Shown: positions 7,441 to 61,500 of the stretch, piece after piece
Position numbering within the stretch: the first letter of the stretch is position 1
How the letters are laid out: each line of letters starts with the position of its first letter
Source: Eledone cirrhosa
Taxonomy: Eukaryota
NCBI GenBank assembly: GCA_964016885.1
Contig: OZ024744.1
Coordinates: 69,812,001 to 69,876,000, forward strand
Direction: 5' to 3'
DNA length: 64,000 nucleotides
Notes under the pieces: generated by a model
What the model saw: only the letters and a program-made list of their open reading frames with translations
Databases searched by the model: none
What the model was told of the DNA's origin: nothing
Made by a program: the position numbers and the translations under genes

Positions 7441-7866
7441 TTGCAGAAGTTATATTTAATTTGTTGGGATTCAACAAGCTTTAAAAAGTTGATAACTGAT
7501 ATAAAGCACTCAACAATGTCTAGGAACCATCGTTATACTTTCAGACGTTCAACCATCTGGCAGGAAGGTATACGTTGCTGACGATAGCTAATAAGCTTGA
7601 AACTAGTACAGCGTTTCTTTGTCAGTGTTGAACAAATGAGCAACGATGTTGCTAGACACTGTACGGCTTAATTCGGGATGTTTGTTTACAAACACACCGA
7701 GCATTATATCCATACGTACATATATATATGTGTGTGCATGTATGTATATATATATATATACTACTGTACGTCTGTATACATATATGTATGTACGTATACA
7801 TACTTATATTTAAGTAACAGCCGTACTAAGAGTGAGAAATGAAATTTCGTTTCATTTTTTCCGTTT
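7441..7866. mobile_element. (TA)n-flanked HHR element, apparently chimeric (family D arm plus a family C-like arm)
   Basis: 7535-7865 homologous to 45150-45440 and, reversed, to 44776-45063; 7445-7525 resembles 63401-63480. Confidence 0.75.
7572..7614 (+). ncRNA. Minimal type I hammerhead ribozyme (family D)
   Basis: ACGUUG CUGACGA U-AGCU-AAUA-AGCU-U GAAA CUAG UA CAGCGU; intact core, palindromic stem III. Confidence 0.88.
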
Positions 7867-22811: not shown

Positions 22812-22874
<63 letters not shown>

Positions 22875-22875
<1 letters not shown>

Positions 22876-23525
22876 CCAGCAGAAATTGAAAATTAGAATT
22901 GGTGCTCTGAAATAGCGATATATATATATGAATGTATATATAGTGTATTTTGCAATACGCTGTATGCTTAATTAAAAGCATTTTGAAGACCATACGCTAT
23001 TATTTTAAAGTACTGACAGTGTCAATTACTTAAATTTTCAGCAAACAGGGGAGATAAGCTGTCAGAGCTCTGTTTCGTACTTATTTGGTACTTATCATAG
23101 CTCGCTAGTCTCCCTGTTTGCTGAAAATTATGTGTGTTGGATTCTTATAGAATTCCAGTAATAATCAGGAACTGATTACACAGAGCGGTCGCCGGTCCAT
23201 TCATATATATATATCGCTATTTCAGAGCACCAATTCTAATTTTCAATTTCTGCTGGACCGGCGACGCTCTGTGTAATCAGCTCCTGCTTATTACTGGAAT
23301 TCTATAAGAATCCAACACACATCATTTTCAGCAAACAGGGAGAGTAGTGGGCTTTGATAAGTACCTACAAGTACGAAACAGAGCTCTGTCAGCTTATCAC
23401 TCCTGTTTGCTGAAAATGTAAGTAATTGACACTGTCAGTACTTTAAAACAATAGCGTATGGTCTTCAAAATACTTTTAATTAAGCATACAGTGTATTACA
23501 AATTACACTATATATACATTCATAT
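22875..23525. mobile_element. Head-to-head pair of about 320-nt HHR monomers (family B, sister of the 310-bp array)
   Basis: Left arm 22875-23199 and right arm 23198-23525 are inverted, each one unit long; (TA)n on both sides; shares blocks such as TGCTCTGAAATAGCGATAT and AGAGCGGT.GCCGGTCC with the 310-bp unit. Confidence 0.88.
23349..23395 (+). ncRNA. Type I hammerhead ribozyme with U3:A8 variant core
   Basis: GGGCU UUGAUAA GUAC-CUACAA-GUAC GAAA CAG-AGCU-CUG UC AGCUU; damaged mirror copy at 23056-23103 (-). Confidence 0.75.
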
Positions 23526-24362
23526 ATATATATATATATATATATAAACAATTAAGTTAAAAATGTACATCCACATATGTATACTGAAATACTAGTATGC
23601 ATATGAATACACACACGTATACATATGTAGATGTACCAAGTCTTTCACTGGTTACTTTACTGTGAGTATCCAGCTATTCTGTATGTAAACACACAGACAA
23701 ACCGGTTTTTAGAGTCATACTGGTTTTTGAAGAAACACCTTTCCTCTATTCTCCAGAAAGCGTCAGTCTACACACAGAATCTACACACAGAAAAGACGCA
23801 ATGTTTAGACAAATCACAGAGGCAATAAACATAAATGAACTCCAACCAAAATTAAATAGAAAACATGAATGGAATAATAACATCACAACTTACAATTAAG
23901 GACAAAATGAAAACACACACATAGAACAAACAACCAACCAGTAACATGTAAATGAACAAATAAATAAACAAATAAAAAACACACACAGACACCTGGATGT
24001 AACACATGCGCAAACTAAGCACACAACAGGCACAAAAACAAGATGGCGTAGGACAGAACAAAGGAGAGGCACAAAACAAAGAAAAGAATCCCCAGTCACT
24101 GAAGTGGTCACAGAATGTGTGACGAAAGAACTTTGACAATATATGAACAACCGTCCGGTTATGGAATCAACCAACCAACCGGAAATTTATAAATTCTTAA
24201 ATTTATAAATTTAATTTATAATAAATTGGAGTGAAAGCAACTGGTGCGTGTGTTTCTTATTGGCAACATGACCCTCCCAAAGCATAACAATATCGGTTTC
24301 AACACACATTTTCAGATAAAGTATCTTGCTAAACAAATTCAGAAACGAAATATATATATATG

Positions 24363-24397
<35 letters not shown>

Positions 24398-24401
<4 letters not shown>

Positions 24402-24575
24402 CGGAGGAGTTGTGGTAAGGAACCAGATGGACCATAACGCACCAGAGTACTCAATACTTAGAGTAGTAGAGTGGGAAATAGGAAAAAGTATGACCCCGTC
24501 GGAAGAGATCAAGCCGTTTCGACGGCTATAGCCGTTATAGTCCATCTGGTTCCTTACCACATTTCCTTTGCTTTA
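24398..24575. mobile_element. Family F fold-back element with half hammerhead
   Basis: Minus arm carries stem II ACGGCUAUAGCCGUC, GAAA and a mutated stem III; no CUGA core; the inverted segment CCATCTGGTTCCTTACCACA follows. Confidence 0.7.
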
Positions 24576-24709
24576 TATATATATATGAAGATAGACATAG
24601 AATATTCGAAAATATTCTGTATGTTTATAATAAACATTTTGAAGACCTAATCGCTATAGAATAGAATACGTCACGTATTACAATTAGATTCTCGATAAAA
24701 GCAAGGGAA

Positions 24710-25682
24710 GTAACCTACGCGTTTCATTCTTATTAGAAATCTTCAGGATTACATATCCAGTGCTTTTATCGAGAATGACACAGCTAGAGACTTATAGAAT
24801 ACTTAGCTGTGTACAGGAACTGGTTTGAAAGAGCGGTTGCCGGTCCGGCAGAAATTAGAAATTAGATTAAGTGCTCTGAAATAGCGATATATATGTGAAG
24901 ATAGACATAGAATATTCGAAAATATTCTGTATGTTTATAATAAACATTTTGAAGACCTAATCGCTATAGAATAGAATACGTCACGTATTACAATTAGATT
25001 CTCGATAAAAGCAAGGGAAGTAACCTACGCGTTTCATTCTTATTAGAAATCTTCAGGATTACATATCCAGTGCTTTTATCGAGAATGACACAGCTAGAGA
25101 CTTATAGAATACTTAGCTGTGTACAGGAACTGGTTTGAAAGAGCGGTTGCCGGTCCGGCAGAAATTAGAAATTAGATTAAATGCTCTGAAATAGCGATAT
25201 ATATGTGAAGATAGACATAGAATATTCGAAAATATTCTGTATGTTTATAATAAACATTTTGAAGACCTAATCGCTATAGAATAGAATACGTCACGTATTA
25301 CAATTAGATTCTCGATAAAAGCAAGGGAAGTAACCTACGCGTTTCATTCTTATTAGAAATCTTCAGGATTACATATCCAGTGCTTTTATCGAGAATGACA
25401 CAGCTAGAGACTTATAGAATACTTAGCTGTGTACAGGAACTGGTTTGAAAGAGCGGTTGCCGGTCCGGCAGAAATTAGAAATTAGATTAAGTGCTCTGAA
25501 ATAGCGATATATATGTGAAGATAGACATAGAATATTCGAAAATATTCTGTATGTTTATAATAAACATTTTGAAGACCTAATCGCTATAGAATAGAATACG
25601 TCACGTATTACAATTAGATTCTCGATAAAAGCAAGGGAAGTAACCTACGCGTTTCATTCTTATTAGAAATCTTCAGGATTAC
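24710..25682 (-). ncRNA. Four minimal type I HHR copies (24710-24752, 25020-25062, 25330-25372, 25640-25682)
   Basis: Exact reverse complement of the motif at 26084-26126. Confidence 0.88.
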
Positions 25683-26083
25683 ATATCCAGTGCTTTTATC
25701 GAGAATGACACAGCTAGAGACTTATAGAATACTTAGCTGTGTACAGGAACTGGTTTGAAAGAGCGGTTGCCGGTCCGGCAGAAATTAGAAATTAGATTAA
25801 ATGCTCTGAAATAGCGATATATATGTGAAGATAGACATAGAATATTCGAAAATATTCTATTCTATTCTATAGCGATTAGGTCTTCAAAATGTTTATTATA
25901 AACATACAGAATATTTTCGAATATTCTATGTCTATCTTCACATATATATCGCTATTTCAGAGCATTTAATCTAATTTCTAATTTCTGCCGGACCGGCAAC
26001 CGCTCTTTCAAACCAGTTCCTGTACACAGCTAAGTATTCTATAAGTCTCTAGCTGTGTCATTCTCGATAAAAGCACTGGATAT

Positions 26084-27986
26084 GTAATCCTGAAGATTTC
26101 TAATAAGAATGAAACGCGTAGGTTACTTCCCTTGCTTTTATCGAGAATCTAATTGTAATACGTGACGTATTCTATTCTATAGCGATTAGGTCTTCAAAAT
26201 GTTTATTATAAACATACAGAATATTTTCGAATATTCTATGTCTATCTTCACATATATATCGCTATTTCAGAGCATTTAATCTAATTTCTAATTTCTGCCG
26301 GACCGGCAACCGCTCTTTCAAACCAGTTCCTGTACACAGCTAAGTATTCTATAAGTCTCTAGCTGTGTCATTCTCGATAAAAGCACTGGATATGTAATCC
26401 TGAAGATTTCTAATAAGAATGAAACGCGTAGGTTACTTCCCTTGCTTTTATCGAGAATCTAATTGTAATACGTGACGTATTCTATTCTATAGCGATTAGG
26501 TCTTCAAAATGTTTATTATAAACATACAGAATATTTTCGAATATTCTATGTCTATCTTCACATATATATCGCTATTTCAGAGCATTTAATCTAATTTCTA
26601 ATTTCTGCCGGACCGGCAACCGCTCTTTCAAACCAGTTCCTGTACACAGCTAAGTATTCTATAAGTCTCTAGCTGTGTCATTCTCGATAAAAGCACTGGA
26701 TATGTAATCCTGAAGATTTCTAATAAGAATGAAACGCGTAGGTTACTTCCCTTGCTTTTATCGAGAATCTAATTGTAATACGTGACGTATTCTATTCTAT
26801 AGCGATTAGGTCTTCAAAATGTTTATTATAAACATACAGAATATTTTCGAATATTCTATGTCTATCTTCACATATATATCGCTATTTCAGAGCACTTAAT
26901 CTAATTTCTAATTTCTGCCGGACCGGCAACCGCTCTTTCAAACCAGTTCCTGTACACAGCTAAGTATTCTATAAGTCTCTAGCTGTGTCATTCTCGATAA
27001 AAGCACTGGATATGTAATCCTGAAGATTTCTAATAAGAATGAAACGCGTAGGTTACTTCCCTTGCTTTTATCGAGAATCTAATTGTAATACGTGACGTAT
27101 TCTATTCTATAGCGATTAGGTCTTCAAAATGTTTATTATAAACATACAGAATATTTTCGAATATTCTATGTCTATCTTCACATATATATCGCTATTTCAG
27201 AGCACTTAATCTAATTTCTAATTTCTGCCGGACCGGCAACCGCTCTTTCAAACCAGTTCCTGTACACAGCTAAGTATTCTATAAGTCTCTAGCTGTGTCA
27301 TTCTCGATAAAAGCACTGGATATGTAATCCTGAAGATTTCTAATAAGAATGAAACGCGTAGGTTACTTCCCTTGCTTTTATCGAGAATCTAATTGTAATA
27401 CGTGACGTATTCTATTCTATAGCGATTAGGTCTTCAAAATGTTTATTATAAACATACAGAATATTTTCGAATATTCTATGTCTATCTTCACATATATATC
27501 GCTATTTCAGAGCATTTAATCTAATTTCTAATTTCTGCCGGACCGGCAACCGCTCTTTCAAACCAGTTCCTGTACACAGCTAAGTATTCTATAAGTCTCT
27601 AGCTGTGTCATTCTCGATAAAAGCACTGGATATGTAATCCTGAAGATTTCTAATAAGAATGAAACGCGTAGGTTACTTCCCTTGCTTTTATCGAGAATCT
27701 AATTGTAATACGTGACGTATTCTATTCTATAGCGATTAGGTCTTCAAAATGTTTATTATAAACATACAGAATATTTTCGAATATTCTATGTCTATCTTCA
27801 CATATATATCGCTATTTCAGAGCACTTAATCTAATTTCTAATTTCTGCCGGACCGGCAACCGCTCTTTCAAACCAGTTCCTGTACACAGCTAAGTATTCT
27901 ATAAGTCTCTAGCTGTGTCATTCTCGATAAAAGCACTGGATATGTAATCCTGAAGATTTCTAATAAGAATGAAACGCGTAGGTTAC
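26084..27986 (+). ncRNA. Seven minimal type I HHR copies (26084, 26394, 26704, 27014, 27324, 27634, 27944; 43 nt each)
   Basis: GUAAUC CUGAAGA U-UUCU-AAUA-AGAA-U GAAA CGCG UA GGUUAC; stem I continued by AUUCUCGAUAAAAGCA / UGCUUUUAUCGAGAAU. Confidence 0.9.
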
Positions 27987-28143
27987 TTCCCTTGCTTTTA
28001 TCGAGAATCTAATTATAATACGTGACGTATTCTATTCTATAGCGATTAGGTCTTCAAAATGTTTATTATAAACATACAGAATATTTTCGAATATTCTATG
28101 TCTATCTTCACATATATATCGCTATTTCAGAGCATTTAATCTA

Positions 28144-28194
<51 letters not shown>

Positions 28195-28198
<4 letters not shown>

Positions 28199-28366
28199 AT
28201 GACTCCGACGGCAGACCTCAAGCCGTTTCGACGACTATAGCCGTCGAAACGGCTTGAGCTCTGCCGTCGGGGGTCATACTTTCTCCTATTACCCACTCTA
28301 CTACCCTAAGTATTGAGTACTCTGGTGCGTTATGGTCCATCTGGTTCCTTACCACAACTCTTCCGT

Positions 28367-28370
<4 letters not shown>
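28195..28370. mobile_element. Family F fold-back element with half hammerhead
   Basis: Palindrome centred on CTATAG (28235-28240); plus arm GCCGUC GAAA CGGC-UUGAGCUCU-GCCG UC GGGGUCA; inverted homolog of 24398-24535. Confidence 0.75.
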
Positions 28371-32930: not shown

Positions 32931-33871
32931 TACCACTTTGTCGCGGGTGGGACCAATCCAGTTGACCACCGAGTCCATTGTCATGATCAAACCGCCACCC
33001 TCCTTCAAAAACGAAGGAGAGGCGGTTTTCCTTTGTGTGATAGCTATGGCGAAAGAGGTTGTATGGTGGACAAGGTTGAAAGGGCTGAGATCAGACACCT
33101 TTCTCTCCGGCCAACAACTGATTCTTTTTTTCAAATACCACTTTGGAAGAAGAATCAGGATGGAGAGAGAGGTGCTGTACCCCAGCAAGTTTTATGAAAG
33201 GTGGGTGAAAGTGGCGAGAATGGCCCGAGTGAATGGGCCTTCTCTCTATATCAGCCTGTAGGTTGAGGAAAAGGAGGAGGAGAGGAAAGGAGTACAAGCT
33301 CTTCGTACTCCTGGAGATGAGGGTTGCACATTTTTTTCGGGGGTCTGTGTTACCCATATAAACTGTCTCCCTCTATTGGGGAAAATCGACTAACTTTTAA
33401 ATTCCATCTGTGATAACATTTTACACGTTTTTATTGTATGTAAACTTCCCCCTTTGTATTTGTCCCCTTCTTTTGTGCCCCTGTGGCTAATAAAGAAATA
33501 TATCTATACCACTTTAGAAGAAGAATCAGGATGGAGAGAGAGGTGCTGTACCCCAGCAAGTTTTATGAAAGGTGGGTGAACGTGGCCTAATGGCCCGAGT
33601 GAATGGCCCTTCTCTCTATATCAGCCTGTAGGTTGAGGAAAAGGAGGAGGAGAGGAAAGGAGTACAAACTCTTCGTACTCCTGGAGATGAGGGTTGCACA
33701 TTTTTTCGGGGGTATGTGTTACCCATATGAAATGTCTCCCCCTATTGGGGCAAATCGATTAATTTTTAAATTGCATTTGTGATAGTATTTTACACGTTTT
33801 TATTGTATGTAAACTTCCCCCTTTGTATTTATCCCCTTCTTTTGTGCCCCTGTGGCTAATAAAGAACAGCC

Positions 33872-35950
33872 TTGGGCCAGTTTTTTGTCGCGAAGCACGA
33901 AGGTTGCGTTGTCCGAAGTAAAATACGTGCTCTAGGAAACGAGGGGCCCAAAGCTGTTAGCTGGGCCCGCGTGACAGAAGCCAAAAGAGGGATTAGATCC
34001 ACTATCCGGTCTTTGCGAGTCCAGGATGGACGGGTGATCTTTGAACCTAAGCAGATGTGTGAGGCCTTTAAAAGGCGCTTTACCCGATTGTTCGGGAGGG
34101 GCGGGGGGCCGGATGGGGATGTGGACTTCAATCCATACCTCGACGGCCTGCCGCGTCTTTCGGACGAGGAGGCGAAGTCCTGCGAGGAGCCGATTTCAGT
34201 TGCTGAGATAAAGGTGGTGCTGAGCCGATGCGGCAAACGCAAATCCCCGGGTCTCGATGGTCTTCCATACGAACTATATCTAGCTATGCCGGACTTGTTC
34301 CCCGATCTCCTCGAGGCGGTCTACTGCAACTGGCAACAGAAGGGGAGAATTCCCTGTTCTGTAACCAAGGGCGTAGTCTCGCTAGTGAGGAAGAACGAGG
34401 ACAAGGGGGACGAAATAAGGAATTTCAGGCCCATAACTCTGCTAAATGCAGAGTTAAAGATTTTGGCCAAGGTGTTAGCAAAGAGGTTGGCGTTTGTCGT
34501 GGGCAACCTGGTGGGAGATGCGCAGACATGTGCTATCCCGTCCAGGTCCATCCACGACAACCTCCACCTTATGCGATACATTATAGAGAGGGGTGGGAAC
34601 GAACCTGGCTTAGGTGGGGCCCTGATCAACTTGGATCAATATAAGGCGTTCAATAGGGTCTACCATGGTTACCTGGATGCGGTGCTAGCGGCGGCAGGTT
34701 TCGGACCCGTTTTCAGGGGCTGGATCAGTGCCATGCACAGCAGCCGCATCTGCTCTAGAGTCAAGGTAAACGGCTACCTCTCGGAGCCGTTCGAAATCAC
34801 GCGGTCCATCCGACAAGGGTGCCCTCTCTCCTCCCTTCTTTATGTATTGGCCCTCGAGCCACTGATGCGGAAGTTGGAGTTGTTGCAGGGCATCCCTTTG
34901 GAACTGGGATTGCGGAAAGCGGTGTCGGCCTACGCCGATGACGTAACAGTAATGATGTCGACCGCCTCGGAAATCGAGGCGATCGGCACCTTACTGGAGG
35001 AGTACCAAAGGTTTACAGGACAAGTCGACCGGGACAAGTCGATCGGGTTGCAACTCGGCACGTGGAGGGGCAAATCGATGCCCTCCGATTGCGTCGCCGG
35101 ACGCTGGACGGAAGGCCAGGTGAGGTTGCTCGGGGTCTGGTTCGGACCAGACCTCCAGGTGGAGAAGAACTGGGGTGAGGTAACGAACAGGGTGTTTGCA
35201 CTAACCCAGAAGTGGACCGAGTGCAAACTATCCCTGAAAGGTCGGGCGGAGGTGGCGAACATTTATATAGCGTCCGTCATCTACTACCGCCTGACCGTCG
35301 TGCCTGCCCAAGGGGAACGCTCACCAAAATGGAGCGCGCACTCTTCCAATTCCTTTGGAAGAAGCGGGCCCCTTTGGTGAGGAGATCCATCTGCGAAAGG
35401 AGGGCTGGGGATTCCGTAGCTGCCTATGCGTAAACACGCATTAAGGCTACGGCACCTCCAGGTATTCCTCACCGGTCAACCGGTGTGGGACCCGTTGTGA
35501 GACGAACCTTTCCGAGACTCGTTTCACTCACCAAGCTGCAATCCTGGGTCAAGCAAAGACCGAGAAAACTGGGCGCCTGGCACACCGACATTCTATAGAG
35601 GGCTGGTACGCAGCAGGTGCCACAACGCCCTCGAAGAAGCCCTAGGAAGAGGAAGACGGACTGGCCAGCCTGTTCGGTAGGACATTTAGCCCGGGACCCA
35701 TGGACAACTTCCAGAGGTCCCTGGCCTGGCAGTGCTACCGAGGGGCTCTGCCCGTTCGAGAAAAGCTCTACAGACACGGGCGCCCGGGTAGGGGCCCCTC
35801 GAAAAAGATCTGTCCCAGATGCGTGCGCGACGAGGAAACCGTCACGCATGCATTGGTACACTGCCCGGGCGTCGCCGATCTGTGGGGCTAAGTCGAACGA
35901 CTGTTGTCACGGGTAGGACCTATCCGGTTGACCACCGAGTCCATTATAAC
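33872..35950 (+). pseudogene. Tx1/L1 ORF2 reverse transcriptase, disrupted
   Basis: KSPGLDGLPYE, FRPITLLN, RQGCPLS, AYADD; frameshift near 35310; C-terminal CPRC..HALVHC. Confidence 0.9.
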
Positions 35951-36349
35951 TATTGAGGACTTTATTGTTAATTTCATATTTTTTATCTGTTTTTTTACTC
36001 GTTCTTTTGTGTAAACTCCCCCCTTTGTATTTGTCCCCTCCTTTTGCGTACTCGTGGCAATAAATAGAAACATATCTATCTATCTATAAGTCCACGATTC
36101 GGTCTTTGAAGGACCAAGACGGACGCGTGATACGTGAGTCGAAGCAGATGTGCGCGGTCTTTCAGCGGCACTTTGCTCAACTGTTCGGGCAGGGCGGCGC
36201 GCCGGGAGGGGCTATGGATTTAGGTCCATACTTTAGGTCCATACTGCGAAAGGCCGATTTCAGCCGCTGAGATAGGGGACGCGCTGAGCCAATGCGGCAA
36301 ACGCAAATCTCCAGGTCCTGACGGTCCACCCTACGAATTTTACGTAGCA

Positions 36350-38116
36350 ATGCCGCACTTGTTCTCCGGTCTCCTGGAAGCGGTCAACTGCAACTGGCAG
36401 CAGAAAGGGAGAATTTCCAGTTCTGTGACCAAGGGCGTAGTCACACTTGTCAGGAAGGACGAGAATAAGGAGGATGACATAGGCAACTTCCGGCCCATAA
36501 CTCAGATTTTGGCCAAGGTGTTGGCAAAGAGGCTGGCGCTTGTCGTCGAAAACCTGGTAGGAGAAGCGCAGACATGCGAAATCCCGACCAGGTCCATACA
36601 CAACAACCTCCACCTCATGCGATACATCATAGAGAGGGTAGGGTGTAAACCCGGCTTCGGTGGGGCTCTGATCAACTTGGATCAGTCTAAGGCTTTTGAT
36701 ATGGTTGACCATCGTTACCTGGATGCGGTGCTCGAGGCGGCAGGCTTCGGACCCGATTTCAGGGATTGGATTGCTGCAATGCACAGCAGCAACATCTGCT
36801 CAAGGGTCAAGGTGAACGGCTACCTCCCGGAACCGTTCCATATCACGCGATCCATCCGACAGGGGTGTCCTCTCTCCTCCCTTCTGTACGTACTGACTGT
36901 CGAGCCACTACTGCGGAAGTTGAAGATATTGCAGGGCATTTCTTTGGAACCGGGACTGCGAAAAGCGGCATCGGACTGCGCCAACGACATGACGGTAATG
37001 GTGTCGAGCACCTATCAATTCGGGGAATACGAAAGGTTCAAAGGAGCGAAGCTGAACCGGGACAAATCCGTCGGTTTGCAACTCGGCACGTGGAGAGGCA
37101 AACCGATGCCTTCCGATGGCGTCATCGGACGCTGGACGGAAGGACCGGTAAAGCTGCTCGGGGTCTGGTTTGGTCCGGACCTCCAAGTGGAGAAGAACTG
37201 GAACGAGGTGACGGCCAAGGTGTTTGCGCTCACCCAGAAGTGGGCCGAGTGCAAACTATCCTTGAAAGTTCGAGCGGAGGTGGCGAACACTTTTATAGCG
37301 TGCGTCATCTACTACCGCTTGACCGTCGTGCCTTGTCCAGCCAAAACGCTCGCCAAAATGGAGCGCGCGCTCTTCCAATTCTTTTGGAAGAAACGGGCTT
37401 CTTTGATGAGAAGATCCATCTGCTGCCAACACCCTTCAAACGGAGGGCTGGGGGTACCGTGGCTGACGATGCGCAAACACGCGCTCAGGCTGCGGCACCT
37501 CCACGTATTCCTCACCGGACAATCGGTGTGGGCCCCGTTCGTGAGGCGAGCCTTCCCACGACTCGTCTCGCTGACCGAACTGAAGTCCTGGGTCAAGCAA
37601 AGACCGAGGAAAATGGGCGACTGGCACATCGAATGTGCTCAGGCGCTCACAGTCCTCTTGCAAACGAACCCAGCGATCAGTGGAGACTCCACTTCGTCAT
37701 TCTATAGAGGGTTGATCCGCAGCAAGTGCGACGACGCGCTCGTAGAAACTCTAGGCGTAGAGGAGGACGAACTGGCCAGTCTGTTCGGTAAGACCTTCCG
37801 CCTGGGACCGATGGACAACTTCCAAAAGTTGTGCTACCGAGGAGCTCTACCAGTTCGAGACAAGCTCCTCAGACACGGGCGCCCGGGCAGGGACCCTTCG
37901 AAAAAGATCTGTCCGAGATGCGTGCGCGACGAGGAAAGCGTCGCGCACGCATTTGTACACTGCCCGCGCGGTACCGATCTGTGGGGCTATGTAGAACGAC
38001 TATTGTCGCGGGTGGGACGAATCCGGTTGACCACCGAGTCCATTGTCATGATCAAACCGCCACCTTCCTTCAAAAACGAAGGAGAGGCGGTTTTCCTATG
38101 TTCAACCCCTATGTAA
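36350..38116 (+). pseudogene. Tx1/L1 ORF2 RT and C-terminal zinc knuckle, catalytically dead
   Basis: LDQSKAFD, RQGCPLS; YADD replaced by CAND; small deletions relative to the 59954 copy. Confidence 0.9.
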
Positions 38117-44735: not shown

Positions 44736-46396
<1,661 letters not shown>

Positions 46397-47150: not shown

Positions 47151-47334
47151 TACCGCTGTAATTGTTGTAGAAGAAACAGGAAGACAACAACTGGAAAGTT
47201 TGATTTCCATCTTCCCATATAAGGAATTACCCCTTGAAAAGTTCGGCTATTTATTACCACGCTAAAAATTCTAATTTAGTAGAGAAATAGCCTTCGAAAC
47301 GGATTGAGCTCTGCCGTCGGGGTTAAACATTTTC

Positions 47335-47423
<89 letters not shown>

Positions 47424-47709: not shown

Positions 47710-50700
47710 CTAGCAGTTTAGCCCGGCGTTGCTCGGGCTTGTTCATTTGCTATGAACAGTTGCATACAGGTAAACGTAGCTTGAAAGCGCATGAGCTTAT
47801 CAATTAAGTGGATAAAGCAGTTCAACCGGTTATTAAATGTTACGAACCAATTAGCATTTTCGACAATCAATGATGGGTTAATAATCTTCCAATAACGAAT
47901 TTAGCAGACCAAAGTTGCAAAATGGTGTCCCTCATGCCGCTGGGGGTCAGATCTGTCCGCTATGGGTGACCCTACCAGTTTTCCAGACGGCATAGCTCCA
48001 ACACCTCCAACACCTGCACCAACATCTATAGCACTTCTTTGTAGACGATATTGCGTGTCATCCCTTGAGGAGTGTAAGCAAAAAGTCCATTCCTGCTTCC
48101 TATGCGGGAACAGGCAACATAAAGTTGGCCATTGGAGAAGCATGGCTCCCCCAAATAGATGCCCGCCACCGACAATGCTTGCCCTTGTGACTTGTTAATG
48201 GACATGGCAAAACATGGTCTCACCGGGAATTGGAATCGCCGGAAATCGAACGGGATATCTGACGCCGGGGGGAAAAGGTTCATCCTTGGAATGAAAACAT
48301 TCTCCCCTCTCCCGCACCCCGTTACCATGGTGGCCTCAATCAAGTAGGGCGTCAGTGACTTGACGACCATGCGAGAACCGTTGCACTGCTTTGGTGGACG
48401 CAAGTTCCTTATTAGCATAATGGGACAGCCAACCCTAAGCTTAAGAATGTGAGGTGAGAGCCCTGGGGGCTCAAGGGAATTTAATAACTCAACCGAATAA
48501 TTAATGATATCGTCGGGGTCTGACGTCCGGTCGATAGATTTGAAGATGTGTTCTTTACCGGGAATCTTCTCAATCAGACGGTCGTTCATAAAATTAACCA
48601 TGGTATTTTTCGGAGCAAGGATGGCTCTTTCGCTGAGCCAATCGAGGTTTTTAAAGTTAGATGAGACATTAGGAAAAACTGATTCCCAAAGGTCAGAAGG
48701 GCTGCTCCCAATGTTGCACATGGAGTCGATTGCTATGCCACCCTTGTCATCCGCAGGGACCTTGCCCTCACTAAGTGCTAAAATATTCTGAGCAAAATGC
48801 TGCAGTAATGTTGTCACCATGCAAATGAGCACGCATATTTGTGCTCAGGTACAAACTCTTCACCTGGAGTCACAACATGGACGACTTAAGGCAGGCACGC
48901 ACTTCATCAGCTCTTGTCCCTTTGGGAATGACAGGCAGCGTTTGCCGAAAATCCCCTGATAGCAGAAGGGTTACGCCACCCATAGGAGCCGTATAATCCC
49001 TAATGTCTTTCAGGGTCCTGTCCAATGCCTCAAGGGCACCCTTGTGTGCCATTGTACACTCATCCCAAACAAAGAGGCAACATTTTTTGAGAACCAGAGC
49101 TTCGTGTGAACTCTTGCTGATATTGCATGTTGGTGTCTCAGTTTTTACTAAATCCAAGGGTAGTTTAAAGGTTGAATGTGCTGTCCTGCCTCCCGGCAGC
49201 AAAGTAGCAGCGATCCCAATCGATGCAACGGCCAACGCAATTTTTTTCTCCTGGCGAATCTTAGCGAGAATCAATTTCGTTACAAATGTTTTTCCGGTAC
49301 CCCCAGGAGCATCGAGAAAGTAAATACCCCGAGTCTGATTTTTAACCGCGTCAATGATAGTTAAATAGGCCAACCTTTGGTCCGACAGAAGTTTGGGCTC
49401 ATTTTCCTCTAAGTATTGGGAAAGAGATTCGATGTCAAATGCGGTTTCCCGCAACAAATCCGGGGCCAACGTGTTAGCTTCCTCTCTGACGGTTGATGGC
49501 AAGCCATACGTCGCCAACTCACTCCCACCCATGTCGAGGAGGGCGTCCTCGATATCAATGAGTGCCCTGTTGTAGATAATGTCGCCGTAACCAACTTCCA
49601 CTGAAGTATACTGCAGATGAGCTAGGCGCAGGAAGTCCTCAGACATGAAGTCTCTGTACTTGACCCATAAATATTTGAGATCACCCAATTCACACTTTTG
49701 AAGCAAAATGGCAAAGAGTTCCCGTAGACCTTTAGGTGATTTCAACAACGCACTCTCTGCTAAAGTGGAATCCCATTGCGAATCATCTTCCAAAAGACCA
49801 CGCTTAAAGCAGGCTTCCCGGTACGTATCACATATTTCTCCATCAACAGTTTTGAGGTGCTGAAAACTTTGTGGGCCTACAACTTCATGCAGAAGAAGGC
49901 AGAGATGAAAGCACTCATGCTGACTTGGGGGCACAGTGTAAACCCTTCCAAGACAGCTGTCAAATTTTACACCAGGATGTCTTTCAGCAGCCTGACCTGA
50001 CTTTCTTCGCACCCAAGTGTTTTTCGACCATATAAAGTAGGATGGAACCTGGGAGTACACAATTGTTTGCGCAAATGTATCGAACTGGCAAAGTTTGAAG
50101 AAACCCGTCAGAGTGATCTCTTTCGGATCGGCGGCCAACTTGGCGGCGGTTTGGTCCGTAAAGTAAACCCTTTGCCCATTTTCCAAATGTACCGCAAGCT
50201 GTACGATGGCGGGGTGAAGTTGGTGTAGGTGTAAACCAAATAGGCACCAAAAAGCTTCATTGCTACTGATGTACCGCCCCGCCAGGTATTCTGTGACATC
50301 GTCGCTGTTATTTTCAGCTTGAAATGCGAACATTGCGGCATCAGAGCCCTTATTTAGATATTTGTATATGTATTTTATCGACTTGACGGAGTTGCAAAAC
50401 TCAACGTTGATGTGGGCGTTGAACATCTTCAAGATAGGCGGGCAGTAATGGACCACCCATCTATTGTCGACTTGACCTCCCCTTACTGTTGTGGTGAAAC
50501 CACCGTTCTCGGACCGTCTCCGCCTGTACAGGGGGTACCCGTCGCCACCAGTCTGAGTCTGGTCAACAAATATTTTTGGGTATCCCTTACTGCACGACCC
50601 CCCTTTCAGACACGTGTGATGCTCATTAGGACCCGACGCACACGGACCATGATAGCTTTGAAGATGTCATGTAATTCCTGGTCAGTTGCTGGGTTAGGGA

Positions 50701-54302: not shown

Positions 54303-55632
54303 GTTATCTCTTTCTCTTAATTTCGAGTATTTTTTTTTTGACCGGCCACCTTCCTGGTGGCAAGGTTGTAAAAGAAAAGAAATTGTCATCCCTTGAATCG
54401 CAAGAATGTTTTGCAAATTTTGAAGGTGCCAGCTATCGCAGCCATTTGTAGACTATGAATTAGGGAGCTGCGCTTTTTGTCCGCAAATCCAAGTTCAGTC
54501 ATACTTTGGTCCAAGCGGGTTGGTATATAACCCGTAGTTCCAATAATGATGGGTATGAAGCTAAAGGTGTATCTTGGATACTGGATTTGTAAACTCCTCA
54601 TCAATGATCCGTAGATGTCCTCCTTCTCCTCTATTTTTCTGACAACGTTTACATCAAGTGGGCAGCTGATCTCCACAACAGAACATGTTTTCAATGTGTG
54701 ATCCCAAACAACAATATCAGACCGGTTGTGCTTTAATTTGGTGGCAGTTTTTATTTTCAGGTTCCACCAGTATTCCTTAGTGCCATCTGTCTCAATATAT
54801 TCTTCCTCGTTTGTTGTTAATTTTGTTTTCCGAAGTGCGTTCCAGATGGTTTTAGCTATCCCATCGTGTCTCATGGGGAGGTAGTAGCGAGATGACATTC
54901 TTTCGCAGCTGGCAACAATGTGGCTTACATCCTCGATCTTTGTTTTACATAGCCTACATTTATTGTCAGCTGCTGGCCCTCCTCTTTTGTGCAGCAGATA
55001 TTTGGTAGGGAGTTCTTGTTCCTGTATTGCATAGAGATATCCCTCAAGGTGTGATGTCATAAACTTGTCGGAACTCCATGCCAGGCTTTTTGAGTGGTTT
55101 ATCCCCTCTATGGTCTGTGTTTTACGTCTCAAGTATCCATGCACAACTTTTTCTGTAAATTGGTCAATTTGTTTATCTTGTTTGAACATTGAATAGGATC
55201 TTCCGATTTCTCTGGGTGAGAGATTTATATCAGGCTTTATTCCATATCTCTCCTCCAGATCAGTCGCTATTCTAATGATTTTTGTTTTTCATGCTCATAA
55301 ACCTGGGCAAGATGGTTGCCAACCTTTTTCCTCTGTTGAAGGTGTTGCTTCAGTGTTACTATCCGGGTCTCATATGTTGTTAATATTGATTTTAGACCCC
55401 GGCCACCTTCCTTGCGTGAGAAGTATAGCCTATCCACATCACCATTGATGTTAAAGTTCCCAGTAACACTGAGAAGTTTGCGAGTTCTAACATCCATCTC
55501 ACTTAGTTCTTGCAATGACCAGTTCAGCAGGCCAAATGTTGGCGTTAGAATTGGCACAGCATAAGTATTGTGGGCAATGTATTTGTTGTATGCTGACAGT
55601 TCTGATGACCATATTTTCTTTACTCTTCTGGT
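54303..55632 (-). mobile_element. R4/Dong RLE retrotransposon, 5'-truncated
   Basis: DVDRLYFSRKEGGRGL, AIQEQEL, CRLC..HIVASC, RHD, VVEISCP; flanked by (TATG)n. Confidence 0.9.
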
Positions 55633-58573: not shown

Positions 58574-61500
58574 ATGGATGTGTTAAGAGTAGGATGTTTG
58601 AATGCACGTGGCCTGGGCTCAACTTGGAAGCAAGCAAAGCTTCTAAATGACCTCAGGTCATGTGGTATAAATGTAATGGTTATCTGTGAGACTCGGATCA
58701 GCGTCGTGCGGCAGATGGCCCCTACCTTCGATGACTTTGAGGTGTATGCATCTCTCTGTCAACCTGGAGGTGGGGGTGGGGTTGTCGTACTGCTGCAAAA
58801 ACACCTGGGTCTTGCCGTACAGGTTGTGCACTCGGACCCGGAGGGTCGTTTGTTGGTGCTAGACGTTGGCAGTAGTGAAGGTGCGGCCTTGAGACTGGTC
58901 GCCGTCTACTCCCCTTTTGGAGCTGAACGGCCCGACTTCTTCCAGCGTTTGGAGACTTTTCTGGGAACGTCGCGTTCCCTGCTTCTAGTGGGGGATTAGA
59001 ATGACATCCTAGATGCACGTTGGGACTATGCAGGAGCATGTCCTAATAGAGGGGGGTGTAACAGCCTCAAGGGGTTACTCGACCGTTTTAACTTGGTCGA
59101 TAGATATCGACTAGATTTTCCAACTGTGCCTACCTGGATTTGGAGAAACAACAGTGGTCAATCTAGATCGTACTTAGATAGATTCTTAGTTAGAAGTAAG
59201 GATAGGGACATATTAAGCTGTCCAGAAATGCGCACGGTTGGCTACACGGATCACAAATTAGTGACCTGCGTAGTCAATCTCGAGAAAACACATAAACAGG
59301 GTCCCGGTTACTGGAAACTTAATTTGTCTTTACCGGCAAAAGAGACTTACAGAAACCTGGGTGCAATCGTCAACAACCGATGGTGGGCATCTCTCAAAAG
59401 AGAGATTAGAACAGAATCAATAAGTTATAGCAAGATGTTAGCTGCCGATAGGAATAGAAACGAGAAAGAATTAACAGGTAAATTAGAAGAGGCAATCAAG
59501 AGCGAAGATGTGGCCAGAGTGCTGGCATCGAGGACGGCCTTGAACCAGTTTTTCGATGCAAAGCACGAAGGCTGCGTCATTCGAAGTAAAATACGTGCTC
59601 TAGGTAATGAGGGGGCCAAAGCCGTTGGCTGGGCCCGCGTGACAGAAGCTAAGAGTGGAAATCGATCCACCATCCGGTCGTTGCAAGACGAAGATGGACG
59701 GGTGATCCGGAAGCCTAAGCAGATGTGCGAGGCCTTTCAAAGGCACTTTGCCCGATTGTTCGGGGGAGGTGAGGGTCCGGCCGGGGACGTGGATTTCGGT
59801 CCATACCTCGACGGCCTGCCGCGTCTCTCGAGCGAAGAGGCAGAGTCCTGCGAGGGACCAATCTCGGCTGATGAGATCGGAGATGCGCTGAGCCAATGCA
59901 GCAGACGCAAATCTCCAGGTCTCGATGGTATACCTTACGAACTTTAGTTAGCAATGCCGGTCTTCTTCTCCGAACTCCTCGAAGCGGTCTACTGCAATTG
60001 GCAGCAGAACGGGAGAATTCCTTGTTCTGTAGCCAAGGGCGTAGTCACGCTGGTGAGGAAGGACGAGAACAAGGGAGATAGTATAAATAATTTTCGGCCC
60101 ATAACCCTGCTAAACACAGAGTTAAAGATTTTGGCCAAGGTGTTAGCAAAGAGGTTGGCGCTTGTCGTGGGTGGCCTGGTGGGAGATGCGCAGACATGTG
60201 CTATCCCATCCAGGTCCATTCACGATAACCTCCACCTCATGCGATATATCATAGAGAGGGTTGGCAACAAACCCGGCTTCGGTGGGGCCCTGATCAACTT
60301 GGATCAGTCTAAGGCCTTCGATAGGGTCGACCATGGTTACCTGGATGCGGTGCTAGCGGCGGCTGGGTTCGGTCCTGTTTTCAGAGGCTGGATCACTGCC
60401 TTACATAGCAACCACATCTGTTCTAGGATCAAGGTGAACGACTACCTTTCGAAGCCGTTCGAAATCACACGATCCATTCGACAGGGGTGCCCTCTCTCCT
60501 CCCTTCTGTACGTATTGACTCTCGAGCCTTTACTGAGGAAGTTGGAGTTGTTGCAGGGTATCCCCCTGGAACCAGGATTGAGCAAAGCGGTGTCGGCCTA
60601 CGCCGATGACGTAACAGTAATGGTATCGACCGACTCGGAGATCGAGGCGATCGGTACCTTACTGGAGGATTACGAAAGGTTGTCAGGAGCGAAACTGAAC
60701 CGGAAAAAATCCATCGGGCTGCAACTCGGAACGTGGAGAGGCAGACCGATGCCTCCCGACGGTGTCGTCGGACACTGGACGGAGGGCCCGGTAAAGTTGC
60801 TTGGGGTCTGGTTTGGACCGGACCTCCAGGTGGAAAAGAACTGGAACGAGGTTACGAACAAGGTGTTTGCACTAACCCAGAAATGGGCCAAGTGTAAGCT
60901 GTCCCTAAAAGGCCGGGCGGAGGTGGCGAACATTTACATAGCGTCCGTCACTTACTACCGCCTGACTGTCGTGCCTTGCCCTTAGGAATCACTCACCACC
61001 ATGGAACGCATGCTCTTCCAATTTCTTTGGAAGAAGCGCCCTCCTATGGTGAGAAGATCCATCTGCTGCCAACAACCTTCGAAAGGAGGGCTGGGGATGC
61101 CGTGGTTGATGATGCGTAGGCACGCATTAAGGCTACGGCACCTACAGGTATTCCTCACTGGTCAACCGGTGTGGGCTCCGTTCGTGAAACGAGCCTTTCC
61201 GAGACTCGTCTCGCTCACCGAGCTGCAGTCCTGGGTCAAGCAAAGATCCGGAAAACTGGGAGACTGGCACACTGAGTGTGCTCAGGCGCTCAGGGCTCTC
61301 TGGCAAGCGGGCCAGGCCGTCGGTGGAGAATCCACCTCATCATTCTATAGAGGGCTGGTGGCTAGCAGGGGCGATGACACCCTTGGAGAGTCGCTGGACA
61401 TGGAAGAGGACGAACTGGCCAGCCTGTTCGGTAGGACTTTCGGCCCGGGACCAATGGACAGCTTCCAGAAGTCACTAGCCTGGCAGTGCTACCGGGGGGG

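Follow-up and report, generated by a model that had tools for sequence, protein, structure and literature searches.

The closest described systems in overall build are the metazoan non-LTR retrozymes (PMC7229834; bioRxiv 10.64898/2026.07.22.740005). As the available text of these studies sets out, retrozymes are tandem arrays of 150- to 450-bp units of low GC content (<50%) with one type I hammerhead motif per unit; they are dispersed in many copies, have neither LTRs nor a coding frame, fold into strongly self-pairing units, and share their genomes with Penelope-like elements. The array described here and the family to which it belongs resemble them in all these features, with the hammerhead of the unit falling below the Rfam cut-off. 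Retrozymes are described as head-to-tail tandems, however, and the available text has no arms set head-to-head, no 3' ends fixed in pairs, and no (TA)n targeting. Those studies demonstrated RNA cleavage and circles, which are putative in the present family. The Discussion of PMC7229834 does no more than propose which enzyme mobilizes animal retrozymes.

A second relevant group consists of endonuclease-bearing Penelope-like insertions (PMC8557442, PMC3846280). According to the available text, they carry an inverted, 5'-truncated copy at the 5' end and a 30- to 40-bp tail that is often present at one end only, they show a bias toward microsatellites, including (TA)n, and their head-to-head form is usual. 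The family shares each of these properties; inverted insertions with a one-sided tail are already known for Penelope elements. It is unlike them in that its cargo is a noncoding multimer and both arms reach up to kilobases. The formation of inverted, tailed Penelope-like insertions is stated in PMC8557442 to be unresolved; PMC3846280, in the sections available, attributes inversions to self-priming at palindromic junctions, whereas most junctions of the family lack palindromes.

In vitro work on the Poseidon element PAc (PMC11167929) provides the nearest biochemical parallel. In the text available, PAc nicks and extends both target strands and starts internally at two RNA sites bounding the tail, with ribozyme cleavage unneeded, as our model for the family would have it, and the protein is predicted to be a dimer. 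The start site of PAc is alike between strands, with no pairing of sites, whereas pairing in the family is strict, and PAc initiates without homology to the cut DNA, whereas the short site of the family matches its target. The same text offers no model for inverted arms. The combination of strict pairing and shared-template evidence was not found in the literature searched (older reviews and supplements lay outside its scope).

The window analysed here is a 64,000-nucleotide stretch of the Eledone cirrhosa genome (contig OZ024744.1). Its positions 24577 to 28147 are occupied by two oppositely oriented arrays of a 310-bp unit (Table 1), numbered so that position 1 is window 26121, the base after the predicted hammerhead cut. 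The units are >99% alike and ~34% GC, the unit is strongly self-pairing (z −3.8), and the array has no reading frame of 200 amino acids. Differences between the window arms and the reference unit come down to one recurring site and one private site, and both arms have an uncommon 162T together with a T/C mix at position 155. Element-specific sequence in the left arm ends at 24586 (position 130), and 24577 to 24585 is TA common to element and target; some of the left (TA)n may come from the element itself, as its ATATATAT. An 8-bp UUCG hairpin spans unit positions 98 to 117, and it is at its foot, position 98, that the left arm stops; 5' stops recur there in the family (6 of the 148 5' ends; corrected p ~0.003).

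Table 1. Features of the head-to-head array and its surroundings (window coordinates)
Feature	Position	Strand	Remarks
Left neighbour	24401..24570		Copy of abundant TA-inserting fold-back repeat 'E', 93% like right neighbour
Left (TA)n target remnant	24573..24585		
Left arm	24577..25858	-	1,282 bp, 4.1 copies; 5' end at unit position 98, 3' end at 'short' site
Head-to-head junction	25847..25874		Turn at 25858, strict overlap 1 base (25858)
Right arm	25858..28147	+	2,290 bp, 7.4 copies; 5' end at position 48, 3' end at 'tail' site (167)
Right (TA)n target tract	28148..28194		47 bp
Right neighbour	28195..28367		Head-to-head 'E' copy, one short and one long arm
Minus hammerhead cores	24716-24746, 25026-25056, 25336-25366, 25646-25676	-	310 bp apart
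Plus hammerhead cores (seven)	26090-26120 to 27950-27980	+	310 bp apart
First plus type I motif with helix I	26084..26126	+	Predicted cut after GUA, 26120
First minus motif	25640..25682	-	Recurs each 310 bp down to 24710-24752

The sequence-only reading of this stretch had described four hammerhead motifs on the minus strand and seven on the plus strand, and cores at the 310-bp spacing bear this out. Both ribozyme-sense 3' ends do point outward into (TA)n, as it had said (47 bp on the right, ~13 bp on the left), the junction text that it quoted matches the sequence, and the >1.2 kb of complementarity that it pointed out between the arms is correct as sequence. Its suggestion that read-through from either side would give sense ribozyme multimers and potential dsRNA agrees with the geometry of the array. 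Its placing of the turn in a TATTC microhomology was not borne out as worded: three copies of TATTC are kept, one in the left arm and two in the right, and the strict overlap is a single base, an overlap of 1 base or fewer being found in 81% of random joins. At best, the window junction could reflect a 6-base pairing followed by a 5-base slip, a possibility raised because the arms of locus L143, where the junction is almost identical, overlap cleanly by 6 bases. The inverted, 93%-identical flanks were considered as a target duplication and rejected, since they belong to repeat 'E', which has 1,907 first-look candidates; the left 'E' copy is read as a separate insertion.

The consensus core and helix I are present at all 11 sites, with the plus motif recurring each 310 bp as far as 27944-27986. 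This motif conforms to the type I consensus: helix I has 6 bp, a U-U pair opens helix II, and helix III is palindromic. Both that consensus and the dimer behaviour known for helices this short draw on general hammerhead biology and on the available text of PMC7229834. The hammerhead scored 17.1 bits against the Rfam HH9 model (cut-off 52; E 0.31), and there was no hammerhead match at the Rfam gathering threshold. A sister sequence from another sample places five of its eight differences inside the 43-base motif and none in the invariant core; the three changes at paired motif positions keep or improve pairing, and all five changes appear compatible with the predicted structure. Runs X4 and X9, labelled as different organisms, each yielded a 340-base sister contig (one unit plus 30 bases, 8 differences each), possibly from stray reads. 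Among predicted Xenopus elements, eight of nine were without cleavage, according to the available text of bioRxiv 10.64898/2026.07.22.740005. Elsewhere in the window, single hammerhead motifs at 7578-7608 and 45198-45228 belong to another dispersed repeat, which forms tandem 480- to 510-bp units at locus L206.

The unit has 249 first-look candidates in its own genome, of which 40 were scored, and ~115 loci were examined overall in three sets. Set 1 comprised the window array and 39 loci chosen by unit similarity, which biases it toward near-identical, longer arrays; 29 of these 40 loci were two-armed in the head-to-head sense, 28 of them with one short and one tail end and one with a non-TA left end. 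Inversion, which the earlier reading had treated as a rare event, is thus the usual insertion form of the family. Set 2 consisted of 37 loci found by a tail-end pattern (112 matches, drawn among the 100 listed), and the 31 that were two-armed had a short partner in every case. Set 3 consisted of 37 loci found by a short-end pattern (154 matches, again drawn among the 100 listed) and chosen by eye as having no exact tail match nearby. Twenty of them were two-armed, with a tail partner in 15 and a second arm ending elsewhere in 5. Three extra loci picked as possible exceptions proved to be one tail-tail pair (L131), a mixed pair that had been duplicated, and a single arm, likewise duplicated.

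The 3' ends fall at two sites, short (unit positions 128 to 139) and tail (158 to 172), and 74 loci have one of each. If ends were independent at 0.5, the chance of 28 mixed pairs among 28 would be 4e-9. No short-short pair was seen among the loci surveyed, and the one tail-tail pair was met by the targeted look for exceptions. The tests that follow use the 74 mixed pairs, with 6 irregular two-armed loci, 34 single-arm loci, and the 3 extras excluded. All 74 junctions are distinct; each insertion therefore makes its inversion afresh, and the form is not inherited from a palindromic master. The ends are TA-flanked and without LTR-type ends, and TA-rich sequence lies outside both ends at 63 of the 74 loci, the TA tracts hiding any signal of target-site duplication. 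Flank duplications were seen beside the insertions at L055, L078, and L063 (40 and 54 bp inverted, 131 bp direct). We conclude that the window array is a real head-to-head insertion, ordinary for its family, of a new retrozyme-type element, and that the family, judged by its sequence, is a young, noncoding, jumping repeat with a predicted self-cutting RNA motif.

The two arms of a locus carry the same variants far more often than expected. Rare variants (those in ≤3 loci) are common to both arms at 14 of 74 loci, against 0.22 in shuffled data (maximum 3 in 5,000 shuffles), and 31 of the 32 variants fixed in one arm also occur in the other. Variants 266A in L068 and 120A in L093 are fixed in all units of both arms and occur in no other sampled two-armed locus. 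This co-occurrence, far above chance, indicates that the arms of a locus share a template; a pair of RNAs from the same source locus, or gene conversion after insertion, could also produce it. Arms longer than one unit are common (95 of 148), and only as many arm 5' ends lie within 5 bases of the predicted cut site as expected (5 of 148 versus 4.8). Because the arms cross predicted cut sites and their 5' ends ignore them, the template was not a cut monomer but either circular or an uncut multimer. A monomer circle suits the loci whose private variant recurs in every unit of the two arms. The T/C mix at position 155 within both window arms is not expected from a single monomer circle, and a multimer template is the better fit at the window locus.

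Junctions are as end joining predicts. Inserts are present in 19 of the 74 and absent from 55; in the latter, the mean overlap is 2.3 bases versus 0.77 for random joins, and overlaps of ≥3 bases occur in 21 of 55 versus 7% of random joins, although these BLAST-derived overlaps are perhaps slightly inflated. In L1 twin priming, two target ends prime on one RNA, leaving a 5' inversion in which the arms cover adjacent, nonoverlapping parts of the RNA. The family is unlike L1 in that its second site is fixed and its tail arms show no tendency to stop where the other priming occurs: tail-arm 5' ends fall at positions 125 to 145 in 5 of 74 loci versus 5.0 expected. An L1-style collision is unsupported for this reason.

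We consider it probable that the array arose in one insertion, in which a Penelope-like reverse transcriptase-endonuclease cut both TA strands and started two cDNAs on a single RNA. This enzyme, probably dimeric and derived from a Neptune-type element, would bind the RNA near unit positions 130 to 170. One nicked end would prime at the AUAUAUAU motif (132 to 139) and the other ~26 to 35 bases downstream, and each would copy an RNA circle or uncut multimer for a length independent of the other. The two unfinished cDNA ends would be joined through an overlap of a few bases or a short insert, and the second strands would then be filled in. More tentatively, and with the balance of our judgement tilting against it, a dimeric Penelope-type enzyme may have read one small RNA circle twice at the same time in rolling-circle fashion, each site with its own start and DNA end. 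If so, the insertions would document two-headed rolling-circle reverse transcription in the genome, and a single step would account for both the Penelope tail and the inverted 5' copy.

The sequence-only reading had proposed either two joined cDNAs or a cDNA snap-back. Across the family the first is supported; the second fails as a rule, yet is feasible in length at the window locus. In a snap-back, a tail-primed cDNA would fold on itself through a short match and copy itself, and its end would anneal to the far TA at the internal ATATATAT, which would account for shared variants and for short-plus-tail pairing with no second priming. The arm lengths allow it in the window and at 38 of the 74 loci in all, and the window junction offers a 6-base match, given the slip. 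L131, the tail-tail pair, fits such folding, its arms overlapping by 16 bases at an inverted repeat internal to the unit, and L137, with its junction on the hairpin, possibly does. At 36 of the 74 loci, however, the short arm is too long to have copied the tail arm, and at 19 neither arm can have copied the other, which excludes a simple snap-back there, with the proviso that later gain or loss of whole units could distort this test. Arm lengths are also alike by type (medians 464 and 509 bp; p 0.55), near-symmetric junctions (within 20 bases) show no enrichment (7 of 74 versus 9.8 expected), and at the window locus the tightest fold-back register mismatches one of four variant sites. We judge a snap-back unlikely as the origin of the window array, and in the family it is likely a minority route. 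Priming of two cDNAs on two separate RNAs, one per enzyme subunit, from a pool dominated by one source locus would agree with the independence of arm lengths within sets (a pooled correlation, rho 0.40, vanishes there and was dismissed as a sampling effect) and with the mixed registers given by shared single variants. At the window locus, no register between the arms is perfect. Source arrays with fixed private variants may also lie among the candidates unsampled (~115 loci examined versus 249). Variants fixed in both arms, such as 266A in L068 and 120A in L093, are nevertheless simpler with one template, and two RNAs give no cause for strict short-plus-tail pairing, so that we give this reading a low probability. 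The array L071 on C2 was considered as a source: it shares the rare 162T with the window locus but is without 155C, and on that account was not accepted as the source. L071 (C2:177306960-177315760) and L046 are long arrays in which variant sets recur every few units, a periodicity suggesting that the template was multimeric or that blocks were duplicated later.

Long palindromes are prone to fold-back artefacts, and no independent read spanning the window junction was found among the contigs of 8 runs. A fold-back chimera from assembly or library, or a plain tandem array inverted later at the DNA level, is nonetheless very improbable: the junction is asymmetric (98, 48), the outward 3' ends lie at different fixed sites, the flanks share no more than 93% identity, and 74 loci with 74 different junctions follow one rule. 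A DNA inversion, moreover, would not put both outer ends at sites where single-arm insertions end. In one related sample, a sister family had orientation joints at many positions (14 of the 15 rows listed, 25 in total); with a shorter side of 20 to 29 bases, under the 31-base bar, these were not counted as support. Runs X4, X5, X9, X17, and X19 gave 1 to 5 low-depth contigs each, possibly stray reads of an abundant repeat, and were set aside as evidence on habitat or distribution.

Priming of two cDNAs on one RNA thus remains the preferred reading, and the 74 natural insertion products favour such double priming over self-priming. The family gives both start sites and the target by name, and is useful as a natural record of Penelope-type enzymes building inverted, tailed insertions. 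As for the enzyme, the genome is rich in elements that combine a reverse transcriptase with a C-terminal GIY-YIG domain, and eight of nine frames inspected have the CX4CxxC linker, a feature that the available text of PMC8557442 associates with a bias toward microsatellites and with the Neptune and Nematis clades. In one such family (L201, L205, and L207), the inverted arm stops at TA and the main arm runs on. Sequence in common with the pLTR of an autonomous element was looked for in 40 GIY-YIG loci, out of 10,597 first-look candidates; no match was tied to an open reading frame and no autonomous element with the unit's sequence was found, and because of this we infer the partner only from its footprint.

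Related repeats show similar forms. In a second, short hammerhead repeat, 28 loci included 12 head-to-head pairs, 11 of them long-plus-short; this repeat (L241 to L270, C1) has 9,857 exact motif matches, and its copies often meet head-to-head immediately upstream of the ribozyme. Window positions 22873 to 23545 hold a head-to-head insertion of a related repeat, 76 to 83% like the unit over matching parts, with a ~320-bp period and 650 first-look candidates; one of its arms ends beyond the tail site and the other at an ATATAT site. Repeat 'E' (24401-24570, 28195-28367, and 47287-47340) has no canonical hammerhead core, and many of the 25 copies seen consist of a long and a short arm. The window also contains PIF1 helicase frames at 48029 to 50666 on the minus strand, likely of a Helitron-type element, and broken LINE-type reverse transcriptase frames at 33863 to 38113 (+), 59948 to 60982 (+), and 54389 to 55288 (−).
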